Shown in pieces: positions 22,283 through 56,953 of a DNA stretch of 64,000 bases. Position 1 is the stretch's first letter, and each line of letters starts with the position of its first letter. This DNA comes from an uncultured Candidatus Micrarchaeota archaeon. Lineage in GTDB: Archaea > Micrarchaeota > Micrarchaeia > Anstonellales > J096. Where the stretch lies: assembly GCA_938083015.1 (NCBI GenBank), contig CALKCX010000003.1, positions 14,793 through 78,792 on the forward strand, read 5' to 3'. Both the position numbers and the translations under genes were made by a program. The notes under the pieces are model-generated. The model made no database searches. It was not told where the DNA came from and saw nothing but the letters and a program-made list of their open reading frames with translations.

Positions 22283-23431
22283 TTATTCTGCGTCTCCTCC
22301 ATCACCAAAATCAACACTTACATCAGAAGTATCAAAATGATATTCATGTTTAGTCTCTTCATCTTCTTTATATAATCGTTTTCTTAGCACATAGGATTGT
22401 AACAAATTAATTAAATTTTCAGCAGTCAATATAGCTCTTGATCTGTCTGCTTGACCATTAACAACTAACTCATGGGGAAGAGATTTAAGAATACGCGTTA
22501 ATAAATCGAATACTTCGCTATAGTTTTCATTATCTGAATGTATAAAAATGTAGACATTGAAATTATTTTCAAAAGGTATGTTTAAATTACTTCCAATAAC
22601 CGATGTTGAATTGAAAACAAACATCTTAGCTTTAATATCTCTGCCTTCTAAATCCCAATCTAATGTAAGAGATTTTAAATGTGAAGTATCAAGAAGATGT
22701 ATAGCTATACTAGTAAGCCCCATCTCTCCTAATTTATCTTCTAGATTACGAATAGTTTCATAGAATTCTTGCTGTTTTTCCAAAATCCTTATACTTCTTA
22801 TAATATCTGAATGTGCCAATAATACTATTATAGCTGGTATATGTTTAGGTGTTAATCTTCTAATATCTGGTGGCCATTCGTTTAAAAAATCTCTAACATC
22901 TGATAAATCATCTTCCGTATCATAAGCTTGTTCAAAAATATTTTTTAGATTATTAAGCGTAGATGGCAATTCTATATGTATAGAAGAAGGTCTTCTAACT
23001 TTTTCAATATTTGAATTGCCTTTAATTCCGCGTCCATCCACGATTTTCCCATCTTTGTCCTTATCTTCAAGTTCAAACATTAGGCCTATTACCATTCTAC
23101 TTATTATAGGATATATATCTTTGCCTTTAGAAACGTATATTGGATTTGACGTATACAATGAAGCTTTTCTCAATATTCCAGGAATGTTTTTAATATGTAC
23201 AGGATATTCTAAAAATAACATATAATACGGTGGTAATAGAAATTGATTAGATGATTTAATAGCAATAGGTGAATATGTATATAAATCTCTCTGAGGTGGT
23301 ATACCTGGAAATCCTATTAAGACAGGAAGAGAGCGTTCATCGGCATATCTAACTCGAGTATTTGGTTCTATTTTAATAATAGGTCTTTCCTTATATTGTC
23401 GAACATTCTTATCAATAATTATCTCATGCAT
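22283..23431 (-). CDS. Conserved hypothetical protein (382 aa) with an acidic C-terminal tail.
   Basis: Long ORF with good codon structure, directly downstream of rpoD on the same strand with a 31-nt gap. No recognisable motif. Ends DFGDGGDAE. Confidence 0.3.
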   Translation of the reverse strand: MHEIIIDKNVRQYKERPIIKIEPNTRVRYADERSLPVLIGFPGIPPQRDLYTYSPIAIKSSNQFLLPPYYMLFLEYPVHIKNIPGILRKASLYTSNPIYVSKGKDIYPIISRMVIGLMFELEDKDKDGKIVDGRGIKGNSNIEKVRRPSSIHIELPSTLNNLKNIFEQAYDTEDDLSDVRDFLNEWPPDIRRLTPKHIPAIIVLLAHSDIIRSIRILEKQQEFYETIRNLEDKLGEMGLTSIAIHLLDTSHLKSLTLDWDLEGRDIKAKMFVFNSTSVIGSNLNIPFENNFNVYIFIHSDNENYSEVFDLLTRILKSLPHELVVNGQADRSRAILTAENLINLLQSYVLRKRLYKEDEETKHEYHFDTSDVSVDFGDGGDAE

Positions 23432-25462: not shown

Positions 25463-25507
25463 TACTCGCTCACCATCAATTAAAATAAATAGGTAATATT
25501 TAAATAC

Positions 25508-26566
25508 TTATATGTTAAGACCACCAAATAAAGTATTGATTAACATCATAAATATGTATAATAATACATAAGCTATTAGTAATGTGATAAGAAGATTTCT
25601 ATAAAACATTGCCTTATTATTTTCTGAACTAGATATGATCTTGGATGTAAATATCGATGTTACAAATATGGACAGAATGGCAAAATATAGGAAAGCTTCT
25701 TTATCAATACTAGGAAGACCTATTTGAATATTTATAGGTAATATTCCTGCGTATATGTTTATATCTTTAAGTTGTGAAAATGCGTTATATAAAACATCTA
25801 ATAATTTCATAGATATTGCATATAATAAAGGCATACCGAATACCGTTGCTATTAATATAAACATTCTATATGTAGTAAGCGTAGTAGATATCTCGTCTTT
25901 ATAATTCTGTATTTCTCTTATATCTAATGCTAGTTTTTCAATTATATCAGCTAATCTAGCACCAGTCTTTATACCTTCTACTATTATTACAAATGTTCTA
26001 CGTATTAATACAGAATTAAAATCTTCACTTAATCTAAGAATTGTCTTATCTAAAGGAACCCCCGAATAATATTCTTTCATCCTTGCCCTTATCTTCTGAG
26101 AAAACAGTCCGTATTCTTCTTTGGCCGCATCTAAAATAGCTCTATCTACGATATTACCAGATCTTATTCCTGCAGCTAAGTTCATAAGAAATTCAGGTAA
26201 TACTCTTTCAGACTCTCTTCTTATCTTATCTTCTCTTATATCTATTATTCCATTTATTATTAACACGATTATTATATAAATCAATACACCGTATAGTAAT
26301 GTACCTGTAAATACTCTAATAATATCTTTTGATATTGTAAAATTATCCAATACTATATCGCGTAATTTTAGCTTTTCAAATACACCGCCTATATCGTTAT
26401 AAGATATCAAATAACCAACTAGGAAAGATAGTAAAAACATTATTACTAAAAGGCCCCCTAAAAATTCTCCAGTAATTCTCATCTCTGCTAATTTTAATCT
26501 TCTATCTAGATTTTCTATGAATTTTCTAGACAGAATTCTACTAAACACCTCAAACATCTTGATCAC
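25508..26566 (-). CDS. Type II secretion system F-domain membrane protein (TadC/FlaJ-like), the second of two.
   Basis: 352 aa. N-terminal TM helices, a cytoplasmic T2SSF-type helical domain (LPEFLMNLAAGIRSGN...GVPLDKTILRL), then C-terminal TM helices. Confidence 0.6.
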   Translation of the reverse strand: MIKMFEVFSRILSRKFIENLDRRLKLAEMRITGEFLGGLLVIMFLLSFLVGYLISYNDIGGVFEKLKLRDIVLDNFTISKDIIRVFTGTLLYGVLIYIIIVLIINGIIDIREDKIRRESERVLPEFLMNLAAGIRSGNIVDRAILDAAKEEYGLFSQKIRARMKEYYSGVPLDKTILRLSEDFNSVLIRRTFVIIVEGIKTGARLADIIEKLALDIREIQNYKDEISTTLTTYRMFILIATVFGMPLLYAISMKLLDVLYNAFSQLKDINIYAGILPINIQIGLPSIDKEAFLYFAILSIFVTSIFTSKIISSSENNKAMFYRNLLITLLIAYVLLYIFMMLINTLFGGLNI

Positions 26567-27373
26567 CTATTCAAATAGACTATATCTAGGTTTAGAATAA
26601 GTAATAAAGCGATAGAATAGGTATTGAATAAGAGTTACTAACATTAACATTAGGAAAAGATGAATTACATTAAAATCTGCAGCTCTACCTGTAAATGACA
26701 ATATTATCAACAATATAGGTAAAGACAATGTAGGCAAGATAATAGCTATTAACATATACATAAGCATTAGGGGATTTAATCTAAAACCATATTTTCTATA
26801 TTCGTTCATCTTTTCATTTGTAATCTGTTTCTCTAATTCTTCTAATATCTTAGCTAAATCTGCACCAGAATCTATTGCACTGGCTATCTGTAATAATACG
26901 AATTTCATATAATTACTGGGTGTTTGAGCAGCTTCATCTCTCAATGCCTTACTAGCAGGTACTCCTGATGCAATCTGTTTTGCCAATTTCTCCATTACTT
27001 CACTAGCTTTACCATATCCTTTAGATGTAAGTAAAAAGATGTTATAACTAGGTACACCTGCTCTAAGTAATACCACCATGTGTTTTAACAAAAATCCTAA
27101 TTCATATTCTATATTTTTCCTATATATTTCAATTTTCACATCTACCTCTTTTAAATTTATCATATACCACATTAAAAGGTTCAAAAGATAAATTAAGAAT
27201 ATTGTTATAATTAAAATGTAAAAATCTAGATTAATATTGGAAAGCAATATTAGAATTGTTATTACTACTGTGGATAACAAAGCATAGAATAAAGCTAATA
27301 TAAATGCCCGTCTTACATATTCTGAGACAGACATATTATATGATACTATTTTAAGTTTTTCAGCTAGCTGCAT
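26567..27373 (-). CDS. Type II secretion system F-domain membrane protein (TadB/FlaJ-like), the first of two.
   Basis: 268 aa. TM helices flank a cytoplasmic domain with LLKHMVVLLRAGVPSYNIF...ASKALRDEA, characteristic of T2SSF/TadB/FlaJ. Confidence 0.65.
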   Translation of the reverse strand: MQLAEKLKIVSYNMSVSEYVRRAFILALFYALLSTVVITILILLSNINLDFYILIITIFLIYLLNLLMWYMINLKEVDVKIEIYRKNIEYELGFLLKHMVVLLRAGVPSYNIFLLTSKGYGKASEVMEKLAKQIASGVPASKALRDEAAQTPSNYMKFVLLQIASAIDSGADLAKILEELEKQITNEKMNEYRKYGFRLNPLMLMYMLIAIILPTLSLPILLIILSFTGRAADFNVIHLFLMLMLVTLIQYLFYRFITYSKPRYSLFE

Positions 27374-27394
27374 ATTGTTTATTTATATAAATAG

Positions 27395-28201
27395 TTATTT
27401 ATAATTATCATCAAGATAAGCTTTGATGATATGTTCTGGTACATTCTTCTGTTTCAAGTAATAATACTTTGCCTTTAACAATGCCTCTTTTTTATCTATC
27501 TGTTTTAGAGAATATTTCCTAAATGTTTCAGGATCGTTTTTTATAAGATACAAAAACAACGAGGCCTCTGGTATTTTCTCCATATTTTCAATGATATTTT
27601 TATACATATCAACTTCAACGTTTTCTTTAACATTTTCTTTAACAACATTGCCTAATCTTGCCAACATCTCTGATCTAATTTTTTCATCCATAATTCCTTT
27701 CTGTTCTAAAATATAATCGATTATAATTTTTGGATCTTCAGTCTTACTATATGTTTTTAGCATCTTAATCCTGTTTATTAGAATTTGCTTTTTACTATTA
27801 CTAGTTTCCATTCTATATAGATTGGATAGACGAGTTAATTCCTTACTTAGATTTGTAACTATCTGTCGGTATTCTTCAATTAATTCATCTATATTATAAG
27901 TCTTCTTCTCTTCTTTTACTTCCATTTCTTCTATCTTCTTTTCTAACTCTTTCCATTCGTCAATCTCTGTAGTTTTTTCTATAACAGGTTGTTGAATAGG
28001 TTCTTGTATAGATTTTGTAATCGATCCCAATGAAACTAATCTCCAAAAATAGCTTAGATCCGATTCAAATATATCTTCTTCATATATCTTAATAGTCGAT
28101 ATTTGTATAGGTTGATGGGCAACTATTACCTGGCCTTTTTGGAATATATCACTCATCGAATTCCCACCTTCTGTTATTAGCTGCAAATTCAAGTATTTCA
28201 T
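27395..28201 (-). CDS. Hypothetical soluble Lys/Glu-rich (coiled-coil-prone) protein inside the pilus-like operon.
   Basis: 268-aa ORF overlapping the 3' end of the ATPase gene. The real start is probably the internal Met (MSDIFQKGQ...). No recognisable domain. Confidence 0.3.
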   Translation of the reverse strand: MKYLNLQLITEGGNSMSDIFQKGQVIVAHQPIQISTIKIYEEDIFESDLSYFWRLVSLGSITKSIQEPIQQPVIEKTTEIDEWKELEKKIEEMEVKEEKKTYNIDELIEEYRQIVTNLSKELTRLSNLYRMETSNSKKQILINRIKMLKTYSKTEDPKIIIDYILEQKGIMDEKIRSEMLARLGNVVKENVKENVEVDMYKNIIENMEKIPEASLFLYLIKNDPETFRKYSLKQIDKKEALLKAKYYYLKQKNVPEHIIKAYLDDNYK

Positions 28202-29624
28202 CTGGATTACGATAGTATCGCGATACTAAGTATCCTACTTTATCTACATCATAATATTCATTAGCTACCATCCAATTCAATACATGTTCTTTTTCTTTTA
28301 TATCTAACATTACCTCTTCTTCTTTCCAACCTAAATATATCTCAAATAGTTCATAAGTCTTCTTCATTCTACGTTTTTCATAATTCTTCTTCTTAAAATT
28401 ATACCTATATACTATATTTACCTCTCCATTATCTAATACTTCTGCAATTTCAAATGTTTTTCTCTCATTAGTTCGTCTATTTCTAACTTGTACCATAATT
28501 ATACCAAGACTATCTAGCATCTCTTTAGGTAAATTAATAGGCGGAGTTGTTAATCGATTTACAGCTTGTACTGAACTATCGGCGTGTATAGTAGAATATA
28601 CACTATGACCAGTTCTCATAGCTTCAAACATTATCTCAGCTTCTTTCTGTTTTCTTACTTCTCCAACTAATATTCTATCAGGTCTCATTCTAAGACTATT
28701 TACTAATAAATCTAACATACTTATTTCTCCTTTTCCTTCTGGATTTGGCTGTCTTACAACCATAGGTACCCATTGTAAATACTTAGGTAATGTCAATTCT
28801 CGAGTATCCTCTATCGAGATTATTCTCTGATTAGCTGGTATGAATTCTGCTATACTGTTTAATACAGATGTTTTTCCAGATCCAGTGCCCCCTGCTATTA
28901 ATATAGATATCTCGTTTTGTACATAACTCCATATCAAAGCAGCTATTTCAGAACTTAGAGTATTACTTGATATCAATCTAGTTATAGACCACGGGTTTTT
29001 AGAGAATTTTCTAATAGTTATAGTATTACCTGATGTTGAAATAGGATAAAGTGTGGCGTTTACTCTACTACCATCTGGTAATGTAGCATCTAATAATGGG
29101 TTAAGTATGTTTATCTGTCTTCCTATTCTTCTAGCAATTGTAGAAGCATAATTAAAAATATCTTCATCTTTTCTAATTACTAAATTGCTTTTACACCATC
29201 CTATTTTCTTATGATAGACCCATATAGGTTGCCCAGGACCATTAACGCAGATCTCTTCTATGTTTTCATCATAACTTATCAATTCTAATTCTCCTAATCC
29301 TATTGTAGTTAATAATAAATATTCTGTTAGAATATTCAAAGATCTTTGATCTATATCTTTGAAGTTTTCTTTTAAAATTTTAATAGATACCTCTTTATAT
29401 ACTTCTCTAACATATTCATATTTATTTGGATCTAATAAATCTCGAATGTCAATGTTGGCTTTTTGTATTAAATCGTATCTTATTTTATTATCTATTATTA
29501 TTTTCGTTGGATCGCTTAATGACGGAATTTTAACTTCGTATATTGGTACAAATTCTTCATCTTTATGATATATATTAACGTTTATTGGAAAATCTTGATT
29601 ACCGATAGTATACTGTAAATTCAT
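28149..29624 (-). CDS. FlaI/TadA/VirB11-family secretion ATPase (type IV pilus / archaellum-type assembly ATPase).
   Basis: 491 aa. FlaI-like N-terminal domain. Walker A ILIAGGTGSGKTS. Asp box and Walker B RISIEDTRELTLP...RPDRILVGEVR. His box FEAMRTGHSVYSTIHADS. Confidence 0.85.
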   Translation of the reverse strand: MNLQYTIGNQDFPINVNIYHKDEEFVPIYEVKIPSLSDPTKIIIDNKIRYDLIQKANIDIRDLLDPNKYEYVREVYKEVSIKILKENFKDIDQRSLNILTEYLLLTTIGLGELELISYDENIEEICVNGPGQPIWVYHKKIGWCKSNLVIRKDEDIFNYASTIARRIGRQINILNPLLDATLPDGSRVNATLYPISTSGNTITIRKFSKNPWSITRLISSNTLSSEIAALIWSYVQNEISILIAGGTGSGKTSVLNSIAEFIPANQRIISIEDTRELTLPKYLQWVPMVVRQPNPEGKGEISMLDLLVNSLRMRPDRILVGEVRKQKEAEIMFEAMRTGHSVYSTIHADSSVQAVNRLTTPPINLPKEMLDSLGIIMVQVRNRRTNERKTFEIAEVLDNGEVNIVYRYNFKKKNYEKRRMKKTYELFEIYLGWKEEEVMLDIKEKEHVLNWMVANEYYDVDKVGYLVSRYYRNPDEILEFAANNRRWEFDE

Positions 29625-30106
29625 CTTTCTATCACGATATTCAATACACCGTTTCTAATATCCTTACTGATAATTTTTCCATTCTTAAAATCAGAATTTA
29701 AAGGTACTCTTATATTCATTCCATCTCCTGTTATTACAAGTTTACCATCTTCTATCTTTACATCAACGTTTTTTGAATTATTCTCTAATAATACGGCTAT
29801 CTTTAATTTATCTCCTTCTCTACTTACATCAAACATAGGTAGATTTGCCTGTTCTTCTCTATCAAAATCGCTTTCTTCTTTAACTCGCTCTACAATTTTA
29901 ACAGGTTCAATACCAAACATCCTAAGCATTTCCATCTGCATCTGATGAATCTTTCTAAACATGTTTTCAAATTCTTTTTCAAATACTTCAGTATTATTAT
30001 CAAAATCATCTATATACTCTATTCTAGGAGGTTTATCTCCTTCTTTTATAATTCTAAAACCAAATCTTCTAATCTTGAATTTTTTCTCATCGTCCATGTT
30101 AATCAC
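29621..30106 (-). CDS. Small Hsp20/alpha-crystallin-like protein, translationally coupled (ATGA overlap) to the secretion ATPase.
   Basis: 161 aa. The C-terminal half PMFDVSREGDKLKIAVLL...VKIEDGKLVITGD...SKDIRNGVLNIVIER resembles the alpha-crystallin domain. The annotated start is a GTG. An in-frame ATG lies 3 codons downstream. Confidence 0.4.
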   Translation of the reverse strand: MINMDDEKKFKIRRFGFRIIKEGDKPPRIEYIDDFDNNTEVFEKEFENMFRKIHQMQMEMLRMFGIEPVKIVERVKEESDFDREEQANLPMFDVSREGDKLKIAVLLENNSKNVDVKIEDGKLVITGDGMNIRVPLNSDFKNGKIISKDIRNGVLNIVIER

Positions 30107-30118: not shown

Positions 30119-30158
30119 GATGTTTTTGATTTTTAAACTTATCACAGAAAGTTTAGAT

Positions 30159-30779
30159 ATGATAATTAGAGAAAATAAAATATATACGAAAAATCTAGTG
30201 CCAGGAAGTAATGTATACGGGGAAAGATTGATAAAAATAGATGGTATAGAATACAGAGAATGGGATCCATATAGAAGTAAATTAGCAGCTGCAATACTTA
30301 AAGGTCTAAAAAATTTTAAATTTAAAAATAACTCGTCAGTATTGTATTTAGGAGCATCTACAGGTACGACTATTTCACATATTTCAGATATATGTTATGA
30401 AGCAGAGATATACGCTGTTGAAATATCTAAGAGAAGCATGCTTCAATTAGTCGAGCTTGCCAAGGTAAGAAAAAACATAATACCTATACTAGCAGATGCT
30501 AATCATCCTATGGACTATCAAGATATTGGCAAAATAGATATATTATATCAAGATATAGCTCAACCTAATCAAATAGAAATTTTCGATAAAAATGTTAACA
30601 TGTTTAAACCTACGTATGCATATCTATGTTTAAAAACTCAAAGCATAGATGTATCTGTCTCCCCGTCTAAGATTTTAGAGAGAGAATTACTTAAAATACC
30701 ATACAGGCCTATTGAAATTATAGATTTAAATCCATATGATAAGCACCATTACTTCTTAGTTTTTCACTTCTATCAATAG
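30159..30779 (+). CDS. flpA: Fibrillarin, the C/D box sRNP 2'-O-methyltransferase. The track ORF begins at 30120; the likely start is MIIRENK at 30159.
   Basis: VYGERLIKIDGIEYREWDPYRSKLAAAIL. The SAM-binding motif VLYLGASTGTTISHISDI. NIIPILADANHP and DILYQDIAQPNQ. These are classic fibrillarin blocks. Confidence 0.9.
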   Translation: MIIRENKIYTKNLVPGSNVYGERLIKIDGIEYREWDPYRSKLAAAILKGLKNFKFKNNSSVLYLGASTGTTISHISDICYEAEIYAVEISKRSMLQLVELAKVRKNIIPILADANHPMDYQDIGKIDILYQDIAQPNQIEIFDKNVNMFKPTYAYLCLKTQSIDVSVSPSKILERELLKIPYRPIEIIDLNPYDKHHYFLVFHFYQ

Positions 30780-32688: not shown

Positions 32689-33811
32689 ACTCAATTTGCT
32701 CTTGATCTATTATTTTTGCACCTTCTCCTACCCCCGATATAATGTATTTATGGCCCATGTTTTCTACAAGATCTAATACTTTGTCTAAGTATTTATCTGT
32801 AGTAAATATCAAAGGATTAGGACCTGCATCAAAAGAATAAGCAGCTATGTTTTCTTTAAATTTACTATTCAATTCCAGTATTGAATCTGCAATAGAATGA
32901 CTTACATCGTTCATATATACTATTTTTGGATAACTATTCAACATAATACTATGTAATCCATCTGAAGCTCTTATTACGATTTCCCATACATTATTATAAT
33001 CTCTGACTTTAATTCTATCTATTAATCTTGGTAATAACACATTTTCCTCGTATTCTACCCAATACCAATATAAATACGATGTTTCTACACTTCTCTTCAT
33101 TCCAGTTCTACTATCTATGGGCTTTTCATCTACTTTGACTAGAGGTAATACTATTTTAATATCTTTTAATTCAGATGCAGGTATAATTGATTCGGCATAG
33201 CTAGAATTTTCATCTATGTTTTTATTCATAAATTGCTCAATAGTAAAACCCCTATACCATATTACCAGACCACCTGCTTTAGGTATTGATCTACATGCAG
33301 ATCCTGAGAGTTGTCTGGCCAATATAGTTAATTTTCTTTCCCCCATTTCTCCAAGATTATCTAAATCCTGTTTAATCTCAGGTACAGTATTAGCAATAGC
33401 AACAGCTAAAGCAGAGAAACCTGATGCAGAAGAAGCAAGTCCTGCAGCAGTCGGAAAATTATTTTTAGATTCTATGTAATATGTATAATTCAATACCGAT
33501 GGATAAAAATTAGATATTTTCTCTAAATATATGAGAATGTTTTTATACTCTTTTGAATCCTCTTTAAAGGTCTTTCCATTTAGTATAAATCTTTCTATTA
33601 AAGGTTGATTAGGTTCTCGCTTATCTATTGATAGATTTGTAATCGTTATAAGACTATCTGTAGTAAGTGATATAGAAGATTTTGTTGGATGATTTCTTAA
33701 ACCAAAGATGTTATCTGGAAGTACTCCCCAGTATTTTATCAAAGCTAGATTAGAAGACGATTTAACAAATACCTTTTTCATATTCTTTTGATAGATTTTT
33801 AAATTAAACAT
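32687..33811 (-). CDS. GHMP-kinase-family mevalonate-pathway decarboxylase (diphosphomevalonate / phosphomevalonate decarboxylase family).
   Basis: The N-terminal ALIKYWG matches the MVD signature (NIAVIKYWGKRD). GHMP ATP-binding Gly/Ser-rich loop PTAAGLASSASGFSALA. The true start is probably the internal Met (MKKVFVK), because the annotated ATG overlaps the tRNA-Tyr 3' end. Confidence 0.7.
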   Translation of the reverse strand: MFNLKIYQKNMKKVFVKSSSNLALIKYWGVLPDNIFGLRNHPTKSSISLTTDSLITITNLSIDKREPNQPLIERFILNGKTFKEDSKEYKNILIYLEKISNFYPSVLNYTYYIESKNNFPTAAGLASSASGFSALAVAIANTVPEIKQDLDNLGEMGERKLTILARQLSGSACRSIPKAGGLVIWYRGFTIEQFMNKNIDENSSYAESIIPASELKDIKIVLPLVKVDEKPIDSRTGMKRSVETSYLYWYWVEYEENVLLPRLIDRIKVRDYNNVWEIVIRASDGLHSIMLNSYPKIVYMNDVSHSIADSILELNSKFKENIAAYSFDAGPNPLIFTTDKYLDKVLDLVENMGHKYIISGVGEGAKIIDQEQIE

Positions 33812-33898
33812 CCCGTCGGAGGGATTTGAACCCCCAACCTCCCGGTATCAACGAATTGCTCACTACAGCCGGGCGCTCTACCGTTGAGCTACGACGGG
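33811..33898 (-). tRNA. tRNA-Tyr (anticodon GUA) with a 16-nt intron at the canonical 37/38 position.
   Basis: Reverse complement: acceptor stem CCCGTCG/CGACGGG plus discriminator A, D-arm TAGCTCAACGGTAGAGC, anticodon stem CCCGG/CCGGG. The loop CTGTAG followed by TGAGCAATTCGTTGAT then A is a 7-nt loop plus a 16-nt insert. T-arm GGGGGTTCAAATCCCTC. Confidence 0.7.
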
Positions 33899-35061: not shown

Positions 35062-35177
<116 letters not shown>

Positions 35178-51915: not shown

Positions 51916-53613
51916 ATGATTACAATAATATTAATTGTGGATGAGTTCGAAGAAATTCTAATATCTACACCGATAGATAAAATAATTCAGATAATAAAAG
52001 ATGAGCGTGAAGTAACTAGCTCATATTTAGCTTTAAAGACAAAATACGATCAAACTACTATTGAAGAATGGGTTAGATACTTAGAAAGAGAAGGAATAGT
52101 TGAAATAAAATATCAGTTTAATGAAATGTACATATCTTGGAATGCTCCTAAGAAAGAAGAAGTAGAGGCCAGAAAAGAGAAGGTAAAGTCAAGAATTGAA
52201 AATGTTGAAAATAGAATATCACAGCTTAAGGAAGATGTTGAAATTGAGATAAAAATTGTATATGAAATTGTTGAACAGCTTGGGCAGAAGTTAGAACAGA
52301 TAGCTTCAGATAGAGATAAATTGATTATCTTCATATCTCAATTTCAGAGATTCAAAGAAGAATTTGATAGAGATATATCTTTAATTAACAGAGATATTGA
52401 AAAGACTGCAACTCAAATAGATGATAAGTATAGACAAGTATCTTCCTTTGCAGGTATGATTGCTGAAGTATCAACATCAGATATATCTCAAACAGAACAA
52501 GAATTGAGAAAATCAATAGATGAGAAAATGAAATTAATAGAAAATAGAATGAAAGATCTTGATGTTTATCTTGAAAAACTATCGAATTTCTCTGAAAAAG
52601 ATGTAGAGAATTTAAAAGATAAATTAGATGAGATAAATCGATTTAAAGAAGTATTAGATAATAGCAAATATATAGAGCAAGAACTTAGAGAAATTGTTAA
52701 ACGATATGAATATATACTTGAAATTCTTACTGAGAGAGAAAAACTATTGGCAGAATTGCAAGAACTAAATAAGAAAAATGTAGAAATACAGAATTCTTTA
52801 ACTAATATGACAGGCACTATATTTGAAATAAATGATAAGTTACAAAAAGTAGTACAAGATTACTATGAACTTCAAAGTAGATCTGCTGAATTGGCCACAC
52901 AGATCAAAAATAATCAAGATATACTTAAAAATGTAGAAATAAAAGATACTTCTGCTATAGAAAGAGCTTCAGCAATACTAGAAGAGTTAAGAACTATAAG
53001 ACAAGAATTACAGTCGTTTGACAAATTAGCAAAAGAAGCAGAAATTATAATAGATAGATTACAAGATATTGGAAAGGTAAGAGCTAATTTAGAGAAATAT
53101 AGAAGAGAATACCTTTTAGAAATAGCAAAATATGCAGAATTGGTAAATGATGATTTAAAAACACTAGAGACTTTGTTAGATATCAAAAGAAGATTAATAT
53201 CGGAATTGTCTCAATATAAAGAAACAATATTGGGCTATGAAGACGAATTTAAGAAATATGTAAAATTATTTGTAGAACAGAAGGAATCGTTTAATTCTAT
53301 GAAAAATTTACTATATGATATGATGACCAATGGGGAAATAGCAGAAGGATTGAAGAAGATTCAAGAGGTATTAGTAGGTGTTGAACAATTAAATACAAAA
53401 TTAGAAGAGGCAAGAAGATTATTAATAGAATTAGAAGAGATTAAGATAAACATAAATATCATAAATAAAGAACTAAATCTTATAAAACTTAGAACTCCGG
53501 AAACAGAGAAAGAGATACAGCAGAAATTGGATTATCAAGAAAAGGCATTAAAGGAACAACAGATAAAAAGGCAGACTCTAGAAGATTGGATACGGGGATT
53601 TACAAAAAAATGA
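51916..53613 (+). CDS. Hypothetical protein: N-terminal winged-helix-like domain followed by about 480 aa of Lys/Glu-rich coiled coil.
   Basis: The N-terminal about 80 aa (IDKIIQIIKDEREVTSSYLALKT...TIEEWVRYLEREGIVEIK) has HTH-like periodicity. The rest is heptad-rich (EIEIKIVYEIVEQL..., LEELRTIRQELQSF...). There is no TM segment or signal peptide. It is ATGA-coupled to the next gene. Confidence 0.4.
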   Translation: MITIILIVDEFEEILISTPIDKIIQIIKDEREVTSSYLALKTKYDQTTIEEWVRYLEREGIVEIKYQFNEMYISWNAPKKEEVEARKEKVKSRIENVENRISQLKEDVEIEIKIVYEIVEQLGQKLEQIASDRDKLIIFISQFQRFKEEFDRDISLINRDIEKTATQIDDKYRQVSSFAGMIAEVSTSDISQTEQELRKSIDEKMKLIENRMKDLDVYLEKLSNFSEKDVENLKDKLDEINRFKEVLDNSKYIEQELREIVKRYEYILEILTEREKLLAELQELNKKNVEIQNSLTNMTGTIFEINDKLQKVVQDYYELQSRSAELATQIKNNQDILKNVEIKDTSAIERASAILEELRTIRQELQSFDKLAKEAEIIIDRLQDIGKVRANLEKYRREYLLEIAKYAELVNDDLKTLETLLDIKRRLISELSQYKETILGYEDEFKKYVKLFVEQKESFNSMKNLLYDMMTNGEIAEGLKKIQEVLVGVEQLNTKLEEARRLLIELEEIKININIINKELNLIKLRTPETEKEIQQKLDYQEKALKEQQIKRQTLEDWIRGFTKK

Positions 53614-56264
53614 TACTTGTCTTCTTATTACTTTTCTCTGGTTGTATTGATCAAATTAATCAACAATTAAAGGCCTCTAGTGATGCTTATAAAAATTTAG
53701 GTATTGCTGAAAATGTATCTGTGCAATATGATAAGAATACTTTAATTAATGTGTTAAAAGAAGCTAAAAAACAGTATGAATCAAGAGAAAACGGATCTGT
53801 GTATACATTGGTATGCAATTATTCTAAATTAAAGAAAGTAGGTTGGGATAAGTTTAAGGCTTATTGGAAATTCTTATTAGGAGATAAAAAAGCTTTGTTT
53901 GACGAATCTCTAATTGGTGGAGAATGTTGGATACAAAATGTTAGTCATTATCCTAGTATTGAAGCTATTATTGTTTCACCTTATCTTTCTGTAAGTGAAA
54001 TAAAGAAAAATCAGGCTTTTTATAAAGTTATTATGGAAGATGATGGCCGCGTATACATAGAAGATATATCCAAATTAAGTGATCAAGAGATAGAGAAAAG
54101 ATATAAATTATTTCACAGATTCTTATTCTTTGGAATAGGTTCTGGTCCATCTTTCTCTGATTTCAATGAACTTAATCCATTTTGCAATAATTCTTTAAGA
54201 TATCCAATTAAATACATTTCTGGTACTAAAACACAATATCTTTTACCAGCATTACCTGATATAAGAGCTGCTTGTTATCTAGATCTTGGTTATATACCTG
54301 TATATGTCTTTTATAGTAAATACGGTATTCCAGAAGTAGATAATTCTGCATTATTAGTAGCTAGACTATCTGGAGAGGCCTATGGAAATCAAGGACACGT
54401 AGGACCTGTAATATTGTTTACAGAAGCTTCTATTACTCCTGATGAATTATTACAAGGATTAGATGTAAATTCAAATACACCTGTTGCAGGTAGGATAAAG
54501 GCACAAGTAGTATCTTGGAAAATACTCTGTCCAAGTTGTCTAATTGGTCTATCAATACCTTTTGATGTTAAACATCAACATCTAAAGAAATTAAAAGATA
54601 TTATACTATCGGATAGTTTTCTCTATGAAAATGTTTCAATAATAGGTTTTGGTCTAGATGTTGATAAATTAGATAATAAAGATTCTGTTGCTGAGCTAAT
54701 TTATCGAATGGATAGTTTAATAAGATTTTCAAGAGATCTCGGTAAACCAAGTGCAATAACATACATGTATATTCCTCAATCTTGGTTAGAAAAGAAGATT
54801 AGACCAGATGGATACAAATATAGTAATTTTGATTACATTATGAAAACAATCTATTCTACTGAAGGAATAGGTACTATGGCCTTATCGCAGATGACTGGAA
54901 AGGGTTTGATGATGCTACCATCTCCTCCGCTAATTCCAGAATCAATGATAATATTATTGGGCAAAAACAATCCTATATCTGTACTTACATCTGGTTTTGA
55001 TAAAAATGAACAGGTATTTTCCTATACTTTAAGTTATTGTAAAGAGTATTTTAAGGTAGATCAAGGATTACCTGTAATATACTCGTCTTCCGGAGTAGAT
55101 CTATTAGGTATTAGTCTAGCAAGTAGAACATCTTATTTTAAAGATACTCCTGATTATAGAGAACCAATATACAATCCACCTAAAATATACGATATAAATG
55201 ATAAGGATGATGTTGTATTTAAATGTGTTGGTTGTTTTCTTATGTTAAATTCTAGTCAAATTAAAAATTATAAAAACATATTTAATACTGCTAGATATAC
55301 AAAAGGGTGCAATGAACCTGATGAAAATATAGTAAAGAAGATAAAATTCTATTCAGATATAATAGATATGGATCCACCTTTTATAAGAGCTTTAATAGAC
55401 GAGCTTACAAATTATAATCCTAATCATGTATCATTTGCAAAAGATGCAAAAGAACAAATGGAAAGATGTGGTCATAATCTTACATACGATGCTGTTAAAT
55501 CAATGTTACCAAATACGCCTAAGATTAGCGATTACGTATGTGGATTCGGTATTATGGATGTAAAACTTGATATAACTAAAGAAATCATTAGTCCATGTGA
55601 AAACAGTAATAACATATTAGGTAAACGAATATTTGAAATAGACATAAATATGTGTAAAGGTATATTATTATTAGCTAATGCTTCAGATCAAGCAGAACAG
55701 TTAATAAAACAATATAGTAAATATATGGCAAAAGATCTCGAAGATAGATATATGATATATCGAATGATGCTAACAGCTCTTATATATGATCAAGGTAGGA
55801 ATTTTACAGAAGCTACTGTGTCATATTTTAATGGTATAAACAATGACGGTTTAGTTGATCAGATTAAGACTGTGGGATTAACTGGTCAAAAGAATGAAGA
55901 TGATAAAAAATGTGAAGATTATATGAGCTTGGATAAATTCTTTCAATATTGTTGTTATTACGATGGCAATAGGTATGAAATGATAAATGGTTATTGTAAA
56001 AAAATAGCTGATTATGAGAATTATTGGGATTTCTTATTAGGTATGAAACTTGCTCGAGGCTTTATGTATAGTAGCAATCCCGATTATTTTATATCATTTA
56101 AAGAAGCTTATTTAAAAGTAGAGAAAACGTTAAATATAACATCCAAATACTTCGATGTGTATGAGAAATGTAAAGATTGTGCAGATGAGAATTGGGCAGA
56201 TAATGTTAATAGAAAGATAAAGCAAATATGTGGCAATTTACCTAATCTACCTATGTGTAAATAG
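53610..56264 (+). CDS. Large secreted cysteine-rich, N-glycosylation-sequon-rich protein (putative lipoprotein; surface/S-layer-like or host-interaction candidate). The track ORF starts at 53586; the likely start is MILVFLLLFSGC at 53610.
   Basis: N-terminal signal peptide with a lipobox-like LLFSGC. About 24 Cys over 884 aa, including CC and CxxC pairs. Many N-x-S/T sequons. No TM anchor at the C-terminus. No recognised catalytic motif. Confidence 0.4.
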   Translation: MILVFLLLFSGCIDQINQQLKASSDAYKNLGIAENVSVQYDKNTLINVLKEAKKQYESRENGSVYTLVCNYSKLKKVGWDKFKAYWKFLLGDKKALFDESLIGGECWIQNVSHYPSIEAIIVSPYLSVSEIKKNQAFYKVIMEDDGRVYIEDISKLSDQEIEKRYKLFHRFLFFGIGSGPSFSDFNELNPFCNNSLRYPIKYISGTKTQYLLPALPDIRAACYLDLGYIPVYVFYSKYGIPEVDNSALLVARLSGEAYGNQGHVGPVILFTEASITPDELLQGLDVNSNTPVAGRIKAQVVSWKILCPSCLIGLSIPFDVKHQHLKKLKDIILSDSFLYENVSIIGFGLDVDKLDNKDSVAELIYRMDSLIRFSRDLGKPSAITYMYIPQSWLEKKIRPDGYKYSNFDYIMKTIYSTEGIGTMALSQMTGKGLMMLPSPPLIPESMIILLGKNNPISVLTSGFDKNEQVFSYTLSYCKEYFKVDQGLPVIYSSSGVDLLGISLASRTSYFKDTPDYREPIYNPPKIYDINDKDDVVFKCVGCFLMLNSSQIKNYKNIFNTARYTKGCNEPDENIVKKIKFYSDIIDMDPPFIRALIDELTNYNPNHVSFAKDAKEQMERCGHNLTYDAVKSMLPNTPKISDYVCGFGIMDVKLDITKEIISPCENSNNILGKRIFEIDINMCKGILLLANASDQAEQLIKQYSKYMAKDLEDRYMIYRMMLTALIYDQGRNFTEATVSYFNGINNDGLVDQIKTVGLTGQKNEDDKKCEDYMSLDKFFQYCCYYDGNRYEMINGYCKKIADYENYWDFLLGMKLARGFMYSSNPDYFISFKEAYLKVEKTLNITSKYFDVYEKCKDCADENWADNVNRKIKQICGNLPNLPMCK

Positions 56265-56266
56265 AT

Positions 56267-56953
56267 ATGAGAGAAACCATATTTCCTGAATTAAAACCTG
56301 GTTATAATGATGTAAAATCTTATAGTACTAATGGTCCAGAAGTGAGAACAAGGTTTACGATAAAAAAAGATTGGGTAATGACAATAGCTGATACTCCTGA
56401 AAATCATGTTCAACCTGTACATTATCATACTAAAAAGAAAGAAACTATATTTATAATAAAGGGATGCGGAGCTATCGTATATTATGTTAATGGAGAGGAA
56501 TGTCAAACAGTAGTATGTGGGGCGACTATGGTGAGTTTCTATGAAGGTATCTCCCATACTTTAAAGGCGATTACCAAATTTCCAAATTTTAGTATAAAAA
56601 GATTTACCGAAGATGATTATTCATTAGGAATATCTGAAAACAAAACTCATCCTTATATTAGGCGTCTTTATCATCAAGATGGATTAATAAGATTAATCCA
56701 TAGACCTGACGGAGAGAATATAGGAAGAATTGGAGTATACATAATAGATCGTAAAGAGAAGATCGAAGAATTACTTAGGAAAATGCGACAATCGATAACA
56801 CATCTTACCATAATTTATATAAAGGGTAGTATTGGTATAGATGGACATACTTTTGAAGGTGGAATAATAAAATTAGATGAATCCTTTGATTTAAGATCTT
56901 TAAGTATTTATGATTTAGATTATGCTATAATATTGAAGACATCCTCAAGATGA
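56267..56953 (+). CDS. Cupin-domain protein with an unknown C-terminal extension.
   Basis: Cupin motif 1 fits PVHYHTKKKETIFIIKGCG (G(x)5HxH(x)3-4E(x)6G). It begins 3 nt after the stop of the preceding gene. Its 3' end overlaps the glyS 3' end by 34 nt on the opposite strand. Confidence 0.4.
   Translation: MRETIFPELKPGYNDVKSYSTNGPEVRTRFTIKKDWVMTIADTPENHVQPVHYHTKKKETIFIIKGCGAIVYYVNGEECQTVVCGATMVSFYEGISHTLKAITKFPNFSIKRFTEDDYSLGISENKTHPYIRRLYHQDGLIRLIHRPDGENIGRIGVYIIDRKEKIEELLRKMRQSITHLTIIYIKGSIGIDGHTFEGGIIKLDESFDLRSLSIYDLDYAIILKTSSR

Follow-up and report, generated by a model that had tools for sequence, protein, structure and literature searches.

Five co-directional genes on the minus strand of a stretch of DNA from an uncultured Candidatus Micrarchaeota archaeon (positions 25508-30106; "the window" is the whole stretch, 64 kb long) are best explained as encoding the cytoplasmic and membrane-embedded core components of an archaeal type IV pilus (T4P) of the "euryarchaeal" clade 2 / Epd-Tad-like kind, in a genome-reduced archaeon of the Anstonellales. 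We give this explanation a probability of roughly 0.7. An earlier, sequence-only reading had proposed a Tad-like assembly operon that was peculiar in several respects, and the five genes that it described were all recovered as open reading frames (ORFs) of the minus strand. Within a known, widespread family of archaeal pili the locus is an ordinary case, rearranged and compacted, with two to three uncharacterised accessory families. Read along the minus strand, its genes are:

29621-30097, minus strand: g1, a 158-aa cytoplasmic protein whose C-terminal domain is HSP20/CS-like in a structure model
28149-29624, minus strand: g2, a T2SSE/VirB11-family secretion ATPase of 491 aa, the putative pilus assembly motor
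27395-28156, minus strand: g3, a soluble K/E-rich protein of 253 aa, predicted to be all-helical, between the ATPase and the platform genes
26567-27373, minus strand: g4, a platform protein of the N-half type (TadC-like), with one T2SSF domain and about 4 transmembrane (TM) helices
25508-26557, minus strand: g5, a platform protein of the C-half type (TadB-like), 349 aa, with one T2SSF domain and about 5 TM helices

This arrangement is conserved. The related Anstonellales loci L002 and L008/L009 presented the same five-gene order, bordered likewise by fibrillarin at one end and by the S13-S4-S11-RpoD operon at the other. All five genes are found in that order in L003 and L004 too. The identity of g1 drops to 43-56% across this set of loci. 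The closest ATPases, 83% identical to that of the window, came from two metagenome-assembled genomes labelled Candidatus Micrarchaeota and Candidatus Anstonellales.

The secretion ATPase and its two-gene platform

The product of g2 is a T2SSE ATPase (Pfam, E 1.9e-38), in which the Walker A motif (GGTGSGKTS, 28866-28892), the Asp box (28794-28820), the Walker B motif (28659-28685) and the His box (28581-28610) are all intact, and in an alignment of five orthologues these four catalytic motifs sit in invariant columns. The prediction of a FlaI/TadA-type ATPase with Walker A and His box is thus borne out by both the domain and the motifs. Among NCBIfam models, FlaI scored 276 bits (cutoff 550) and the TadA family 189 bits. 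When solved structures were compared, AfGspE (2OAP) gave 239 bits over the full length, ahead of FlaI (208) and CpaF (167). AfGspE belongs to clade 2 / arCOG01817 (Makarova 2016 Fig. S4, PMC4858521), and by these scores g2 appears to be closest to this clade 2 protein and not to FlaI or CpaF.

As the sequence-only reading had it, the platform is encoded by two separate genes for membrane proteins with one T2SSF domain each (Pfam; g4, E 2.6e-18; g5, E 5.4e-11). On the ArlJ/FlaJ models of NCBIfam, g4 corresponds to the N half (6-249 of 555) and g5 to the C half (160-463 of 465); the two are mutually paralogous (23% identity, E 3e-7), and a TM scan predicted 4-5 segments in them. We surveyed 82 related loci by local hidden Markov model (HMM) scans, 80 of them metagenomic (ATPase 46-56% identical) plus two, L005 and L006, from genomes, the ATPases of the whole set being 44-58% identical. 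A g4-type gene lay downstream of the ATPase in 62 of the 82. In all 49 loci with both halves, the g4- and g5-type genes lay side by side as distinct ORFs, spaced by -59 to +103 nt, and no fused platform gene was found in any of the 82. This agrees with published work: two tadC-like genes occur in archaeal clade 1 and in many clade 2 T4P loci, the Nanoarchaeota ATPases being placed in clade 2 (Makarova 2016, PMC4858521). Epd-like archaeal pili and bacterial Tad have in common two single-T2SSF platform genes that arose by gene fission, with TadC equivalent to the N half and TadB to the C half of a two-domain platform (Denise 2019, PMC6668835). In Methanococcus, EpdJ and EpdK are each essential (PMC4371748). 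A two-gene platform, which had been considered unusual for archaea, is therefore normal for this pilus family, being both published for archaeal pili and universal among the 49 surveyed loci with both halves.

Since the best NCBIfam models were FlaI for the ATPase and ArlJ/FlaJ for the platform, a reduced archaellum core, serving motility, has to be considered. It is effectively refuted, however. The scores were far under the equivalog cutoffs (276 vs 550, 32 vs 550 and 24 vs 400), AfGspE is a closer relative of the ATPase than FlaI is, and neither archaellin nor FlaH, FlaF or FlaG was found in the window. Moreover, related loci have short UPF0333 pilins and not archaellins, and Mia14 (see below) and most DPANN archaea are without archaella (PMC5498576).

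The locus was also compared with known systems. The clade 2 modules (arCOG01817; Haloferax volcanii PilB3-PilC3, AfGspE) share with the window locus a VirB11/T2SSE ATPase, that of the window being nearest to AfGspE; they often carry two tadC-like genes, are frequently devoid of pilins, using those encoded in trans, and include Nanoarchaeota. In contrast to them, the window locus has a gene for a putative HSP20-fold protein upstream and a helical K/E-rich gene between ATPase and platform, and its neighbours on either side are the fibrillarin gene and the S13 ribosomal-protein operon. The likeness to the Epd pilus of Methanococcus maripaludis (EpdL, EpdJ/EpdK, EppA) is one of arrangement, with two single-T2SSF platform genes in both, and the pilins of Epd and those of related DPANN loci both have a K-G/A-Q cleavage site with Q at +1. 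The window order, however, is ATPase, N half, C half, colinear with an unsplit gene, and there is no EppA-like peptidase or pilin in cis. Bacterial Tad/Flp systems (TadA/CpaF, TadB, TadC) also combine one ATPase with two half-size platform proteins, and g2 is clearly CpaF-homologous (167 bits), but the window locus has no secretin, TadZ, Flp pilin or TadV, g2 is nearer to archaeal relatives, and the organism, an archaeon, has no outer membrane. No second ATPase (TadZ/FlaH; ParA/MinD/KaiC-type Pfam families) was detected in the operon or in the other scanned ORFs of the window.

Pilins, prepilin peptidase and the function of the core

Three regex searches yielded no pilin in the window, nor did an HMM built on the N-terminus of DPANN pilins, with which the best window match was at E 1.9. 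The positive controls for this HMM, four pilins in L005/L006, were matched at E 1e-11 to 1e-16. These control pilins were recognised by their class III motif and belong to no named Pfam or NCBIfam family. The pilin N-terminal motif of the related DPANN loci is K[GA]QAAME[YF]LMTYGWAIL, and one of its database matches is labelled UPF0333. Regex and HMM were equally negative in five related Anstonellales loci, and a Pfam scan of window ORFs, covering every polytopic membrane protein, gave no Peptidase_A24 (FlaK/PibD/EppA). Hence the claim that no prepilin or peptidase gene lies in the 64 kb was confirmed by regex, HMM and Pfam, and pilins did not turn up in the same operon just beyond the locus either. 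The rarity attached to that absence was not borne out, as ATPase/TadC modules without pilins of their own, served in trans, have been published, e.g. the Haloferax PilB3 locus (Makarova 2016, PMC4858521). Among related loci, a UPF0333/class III pilin (KGQAAMEYLMTYGWAIL-type N-terminus) was located within 1 kb downstream of the g5-type gene in 27 of the 37 that could be tested. The absence of pilins in cis is only mildly unusual, and the locus has been rearranged in this lineage, because those 27 relatives carry a pilin after the platform. A false lead is thereby removed: a split platform and missing pilins are normal in this family.

We believe that a hexameric g2 ATPase would dock on a platform made of two half-size T2SSF proteins, g4 (N half) and g5 (C half), and that motor and platform together would pull prepilins from the membrane, building a filament on the cell surface by polymerisation. 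Cleavage of the prepilins would fall to an A24 peptidase, and both pilins and peptidase would be encoded elsewhere in the genome; the filament may serve adhesion to a host or surface. DPANN archaea rely on physical host contact, and type IV pili are leading candidates for establishing it. In "Ca. Mancarchaeum acidiphilum" Mia14, a Micrarchaeon in culture, there are two T4P loci and a single, unlinked FlaK-like peptidase (Golyshina et al. 2017, PMC5498576), and the pili of Mia14 have been proposed for host contact (PMC5498576). Compared by its published description, Mia14 is of the same phylum and likewise has T4P cores with the sole peptidase elsewhere; it belongs, however, to another order, and accessories such as g1 and g3 are not described there. 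That the core is retained in a housekeeping block of a window that is 96% coding, in a lineage with very small published genomes, suggests that it is important to the organism.

An alternative is that the motor was repurposed after pilin loss, possibly for secretion or for the uptake of DNA or solutes where the cell meets its host, or for membrane remodelling. Such a change would fit the lack of pilins and peptidase in the 64 kb and around five related Anstonellales loci, the gain of the lineage-specific g1 together with the loss of an adjacent winged helix-turn-helix (wHTH) gene, and the placement of the locus directly upstream of the S13 operon (45-nt spacer) in housekeeping surroundings. 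Makarova 2016 suggests likewise for the pilin-less Thermoproteales systems (PMC4858521), and natural transformation in Methanococcus is reported to need T4P genes (PMC10133366). Nevertheless, we regard this alternative as quite unlikely: for several ATPase/TadC modules reliance on pilins in trans is documented as the norm (PMC4858521), the two platform halves, like all the catalytic motifs, are conserved and undamaged, and the absence of pilins covers 64 kb, which is a minor share of the genome.

Several points weigh against a pilus core of clade 2. The clade assignment follows the order of scores against three solved structures and not a tree. No pilin or prepilin peptidase has been seen for this organism within the 64-kb window, and a database search with the pilin profile (69 candidates) yielded pilins of Micrarchaeota/Micrarchaeales, none of them from this contig or from a named Anstonellales. 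The remaining 10 of the 37 testable related loci are also without an adjacent pilin, so that pilin-less cores, of putative function, recur. Finally, the involvement of g1 and g3 is argued solely from their position, in a genome where adjacency and overlap are the rule.

Upstream of the ATPase of the Aenigmatarchaeota locus L006 (1082-7153, plus strand) we observed three genes, coding for a protein of 1385 aa with a hydrophobic anchor at the N-terminus, one of 407 aa that starts MDIKYQKGQIYSLISVLIV (class III-like site) and a Cys-rich, membrane-anchored protein of 232 aa. They are probably large minor pilins or adhesins.

The gene upstream of the ATPase and other candidate accessories

The g1 protein is made up of a conserved N-terminal segment (FK[VI]R[RK]F..RII.EG..PP.IE), a helical linker and a C-terminal beta-sandwich of about 73 aa. 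In an AlphaFold2 model, built from a shallow alignment of 4 sequences, the C-terminal domain (residues ~86-158) had seven strands and a pLDDT (predicted local confidence) of 72-88, and the N-terminal part was of low confidence. Nearly all the top Foldseek matches in the PDB were small heat-shock proteins (sHSPs), together with the CS domain of Shq1; the neighbours included AgsA and others, and the best among them were Sulfolobus Hsp14.0/14.1, the Hsp20.1 alpha-crystallin domain (ACD) and the Shq1 CS domain. Their E-values, from 6e-4 to 3e-2, were marginal, with a probability of 1.0 and target-normalised TM-scores of 0.5-0.62. Thus, the C-terminal domain of g1 models as an alpha-crystallin/CS-type beta-sandwich.

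Sequence comparisons gave a different picture. The excised domain matched HSP20 (14.9 bits vs a cutoff of 20.8), ArsA_HSP20 and CS in Pfam below threshold, and the full-length protein had no match to HSP20 (PF00011) at E<=1, its only hit being a chance-level one to PCB_OB (E 0.26). A g1 profile run on PDB sequences found no sHSP, nor did an exhaustive profile search of 1.84 billion representatives, which returned two clusters of the family itself plus two spurious ankyrin-repeat proteins. No evidence of homology to Methanocaldococcus jannaschii Hsp16.5 (1SHS) was obtained, since hhalign gave a probability of 0.4% and aligned only a 17-residue N-terminal "F..F..MF" stretch. The suggestion of an Hsp20-like protein accordingly stands at the fold level, from the structure model, and no further, because Pfam, the PDB profile search and hhalign show no ACD homology; sequence support was below threshold everywhere. 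With sHSPs g1 shares a seven-stranded sandwich that closes in a GVLNIVIER strand like ACD beta9. Unlike them, it has neither the beta6 dimerisation loop nor a C-terminal extension with an I-X-I/V motif (all five family members stop at the last strand, …NIVIER), it falls under every sequence threshold, it carries an unusual, highly conserved basic N-terminal segment, and its family is confined to one archaeal order.

Other identities for g1 were considered. A FlaH/FlaG/FlaF-type accessory protein was not supported: g1 has no P-loop or TM segment, FlaF and FlaG structures were not among its top fold matches, and the modelled structure is a beta-sandwich of the alpha-crystallin/CS type. The protein also contains two stretches that recall the c-di-GMP-binding hallmarks of PilZ, RRFGFR (RRxxxR; 30040-30070) and DVSREG (DxSxxG; 29813-29830), lying 75 residues apart; PilZ requires RxxxR and (D/N)xSxxG at a distance of about 20-30 residues, and the D of DVSREG is E in two of the five homologues. 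Pfam gave no PilZ match even with the helical insert deleted, hhalign against PA4608 gave a probability of 0.05%, and no PilZ structure appeared among the top 50 fold matches, so that this identity was rejected too. Residues ~88-120 (29735-29836, minus strand; PMFDVSREGDKLKIAVLLENNSKNVDVKIEDG) resemble one ankyrin repeat, and over a single stretch of ~30 aa the g1 profile matches DARPins at E 0.03 and, at E 1e-11 and 7e-7, a pair of proteins with multiple repeats. We judged this to be probably a chance convergence of one strand-turn-strand segment on one ankyrin repeat, as an ankyrin relation conflicts with the confident beta model and with the strand-like sequence pattern.

Database searches yielded four homologues of g1. 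The gene was found solely in Anstonellales, being absent from all 82 non-Anstonellales loci, and its 4-nt overlap with the ATPase gene is kept in relatives down to 43% identity, L002 and L008/L009 among them. Translational coupling of g1 to the ATPase had been thought unusual. This is not the case in the window, which has ~30% GC and is 96% coding: 15 of its 39 same-strand neighbour pairs overlap, seven of them by exactly 4 nt, and 27 are <=10 nt apart. These figures match those of the ultra-reduced Anstonellales genus Redboyarchaeum, of which the organism is possibly a member: there the coding density is ~95.6%, the median share of overlapping genes is 39% and GC is low (Rao et al. 2025, PMC12892359). 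Owing to this tight packing genome-wide, the coupling is weak evidence for a functional link.

Within the pilus core, g1 could act as a dedicated holdase-type accessory, or it could be a diverged small chaperone packed beside the operon. The rival that g1 is outside the machine altogether, a fast-evolving general small chaperone or an unrelated beta-sandwich protein that became a neighbour through compaction, has in our opinion a chance slightly short of even. It is in keeping with the compaction just described (96% coding, 7/39 pairs with a 4-nt overlap, 27/39 <=10 nt apart) and with the median of 39% overlapping genes in Redboyarchaeum-type genomes (PMC12892359). It also agrees with a synteny that spans the whole neighbourhood and not g1 and the ATPase alone, with the absence of g1 from the 82 non-Anstonellales loci and with the lack of a second HSP20 among the Pfam-scanned window ORFs. 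A general chaperone is harder to reconcile with the lack of the IXI tail and beta6 loop by which canonical sHSPs oligomerise, with the failure of every sequence method to place HSP20 above threshold, with an N-terminal basic segment that is the best-conserved part of the protein and is unlike sHSP N-termini, and with the exact position of g1, which is that of a wHTH accessory gene in related loci.

The prediction of a soluble K/E-rich protein between ATPase and platform held true for g3, which by TM scan and composition is soluble with 26% K+E. Its AlphaFold2 model (pLDDT 67) is all helices, with a disordered N-terminus and a conserved C-terminal helical domain, and no match to its fold was found in the PDB (best E 1.2). 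Only 4 close homologues were found. However, the C-terminal domain recurs (E 8e-12 to 5e-4) in low-complexity genes of 251-563 aa at the same position, between the ATPase and the g4-type gene, in L011-L015, L018 and L037, the closest non-Anstonellales loci. Because of this recurrence g3 is a positional accessory of a sub-clade and not a true orphan. The g3 profile matched the 442-aa product of the gene in the corresponding position of L005 weakly (10% probability), and showed no link to the L006 upstream protein. As a cytoplasmic helical accessory, g3 would probably be a scaffold or regulator touching the ATPase or the platform. The space between ATPase and g4-type gene varies elsewhere as well: an insert of 2.6-3.3 kb with unidentified gene(s) was observed in L020, L027, L029, L032, L035, L039 and L040, and other related loci have inserts of 0.15-1.8 kb, about half having none.

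In 41 of 72 related loci, the ATPase is preceded at no more than 450 nt by a co-directional gene for a protein with an N-terminal wHTH domain of ~65 aa followed by a K/E coiled coil. An HMM of this domain (alignment A6) had a single match in the window (E 4e-26), 22 kb from the ATPase:

51916-53613, plus strand: wHTH/coiled-coil protein of 565 aa, probable dispersed component of the pilus locus

This protein has no Pfam match and no TM segments, and is cytoplasmic; the wHTH-domain profile weakly matches Lrp/AsnC HTH domains in the PDB (E 0.002). In the Anstonellales loci no such domain is encoded over the 3-10 kb of flanking sequence ahead of the ATPase, and g1 fills the position that the wHTH gene takes in related loci. 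On the grounds of the profile match, the 565-aa protein is probably a component of the pilus locus that became dispersed, and like g3 it may work as a scaffold or regulator. A widespread DPANN architecture is thus defined, composed of wHTH/coiled-coil gene, ATPase, variable helical gene, two platform halves and UPF0333 pilins. The ancestral order would have been wHTH/coiled-coil gene, ATPase, variable helical gene, N-half platform, C-half platform and pilins, and in the window this locus would have been broken up, with the wHTH gene 22 kb away, the pilins not in cis and g1 upstream of the ATPase. The g1, g3 and wHTH/coiled-coil proteins represent three uncharacterised families that are candidates in archaeal pilus regulation. 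A bolder proposal would be that the Anstonellales, possibly a Redboyarchaeum-type lineage of them, remodelled an ancestral DPANN pilus locus. Pilins and wHTH/coiled-coil partner would have been displaced and the HSP20-fold g1 coupled in translation to the ATPase, so that g1 with g3 became a new dedicated motor subunit, perhaps a holdase protecting the ATPase or the N-terminal helices of pilins against heat, or an adaptor for them; alternatively, the motor would run without classical pilins. We consider it unlikely.

Directly downstream of the wHTH/coiled-coil gene, at 53586-56264 (plus strand), lies a gene for an 892-aa Cys-rich protein with an N-terminal signal and a lipobox-like LLFSGC, which belongs to no Pfam family and had no homologue in the 89 loci fetched; it could be a surface or adhesion protein. 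It is followed at 56267-56953 (plus strand) by a gene for a 228-aa protein, also of no Pfam family.

Gene starts, spacers and neighbouring genes

Three of the five starts were corrected, and each is an ATG preceded by a GGTGA-type Shine-Dalgarno site and consistent with the N-termini of homologues. The start of g1 is ATG 30097, with a GGTGA site, and not GTG 30106, a database homologue also being 158 aa long. For g3 it is ATG 28156 (253 aa), with an AGGTGG site, the homologues beginning at Met16 of the longest ORF, and for g5 it is ATG 26557 (349 aa), with a GGTGAT site. Consequently, of the two overlaps predicted, the ATGA at 29621-29624 is present, and the one of 53 nt between g2 and g3 (28149-28201) is really of 8 nt (ATGAGTGA). 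The larger figure is an artefact of ORF calling, in which the longest ORF was taken and the real g3 start is further in.

All other annotated genes in the window belong, by Pfam scans, to housekeeping or general metabolism; examples are ribosomal proteins, RNA polymerase, EF2, eRF1, aminoacyl-tRNA synthetases, MCM, exosome, SecDF and mevalonate decarboxylase. The fibrillarin ORF beside g1 (30120-30779, plus strand) is ~13 codons longer than those of relatives (219 aa vs 206-209 aa), and its true start is probably Met14 (30159). With that start, fibrillarin and g1 would have in common a divergent promoter region of 61 nt with the TATA-like boxes TTTAAAAA and TTATATAT. At the other end, the 45-nt spacer between g5 and the S13-S4-S11-RpoD operon (25463-25507) contains a TATA box close to the archaeal consensus (TTTAAATA) as well as a Shine-Dalgarno site, GGTGA. 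Judging from these signals, transcription of the ribosomal operon probably starts from a promoter of its own, but transcripts of the pilus genes may run on into it. This junction is kept in L002 and L008. After RpoD, at 22283-23431 (minus strand), there is a gene for a 382-aa protein of no Pfam family, whose relatives vary strongly in length (581 aa in L002, 428 aa in L008). Two RNA genes were also noted, namely a stand-alone 5S rRNA gene at 35064-35177 (plus strand), between the MscS and phosphoglucomutase genes, and a tRNA-Thr(TGT) at 33811-33898 (minus strand), which at 88 nt is longer than usual and may hold an intron.

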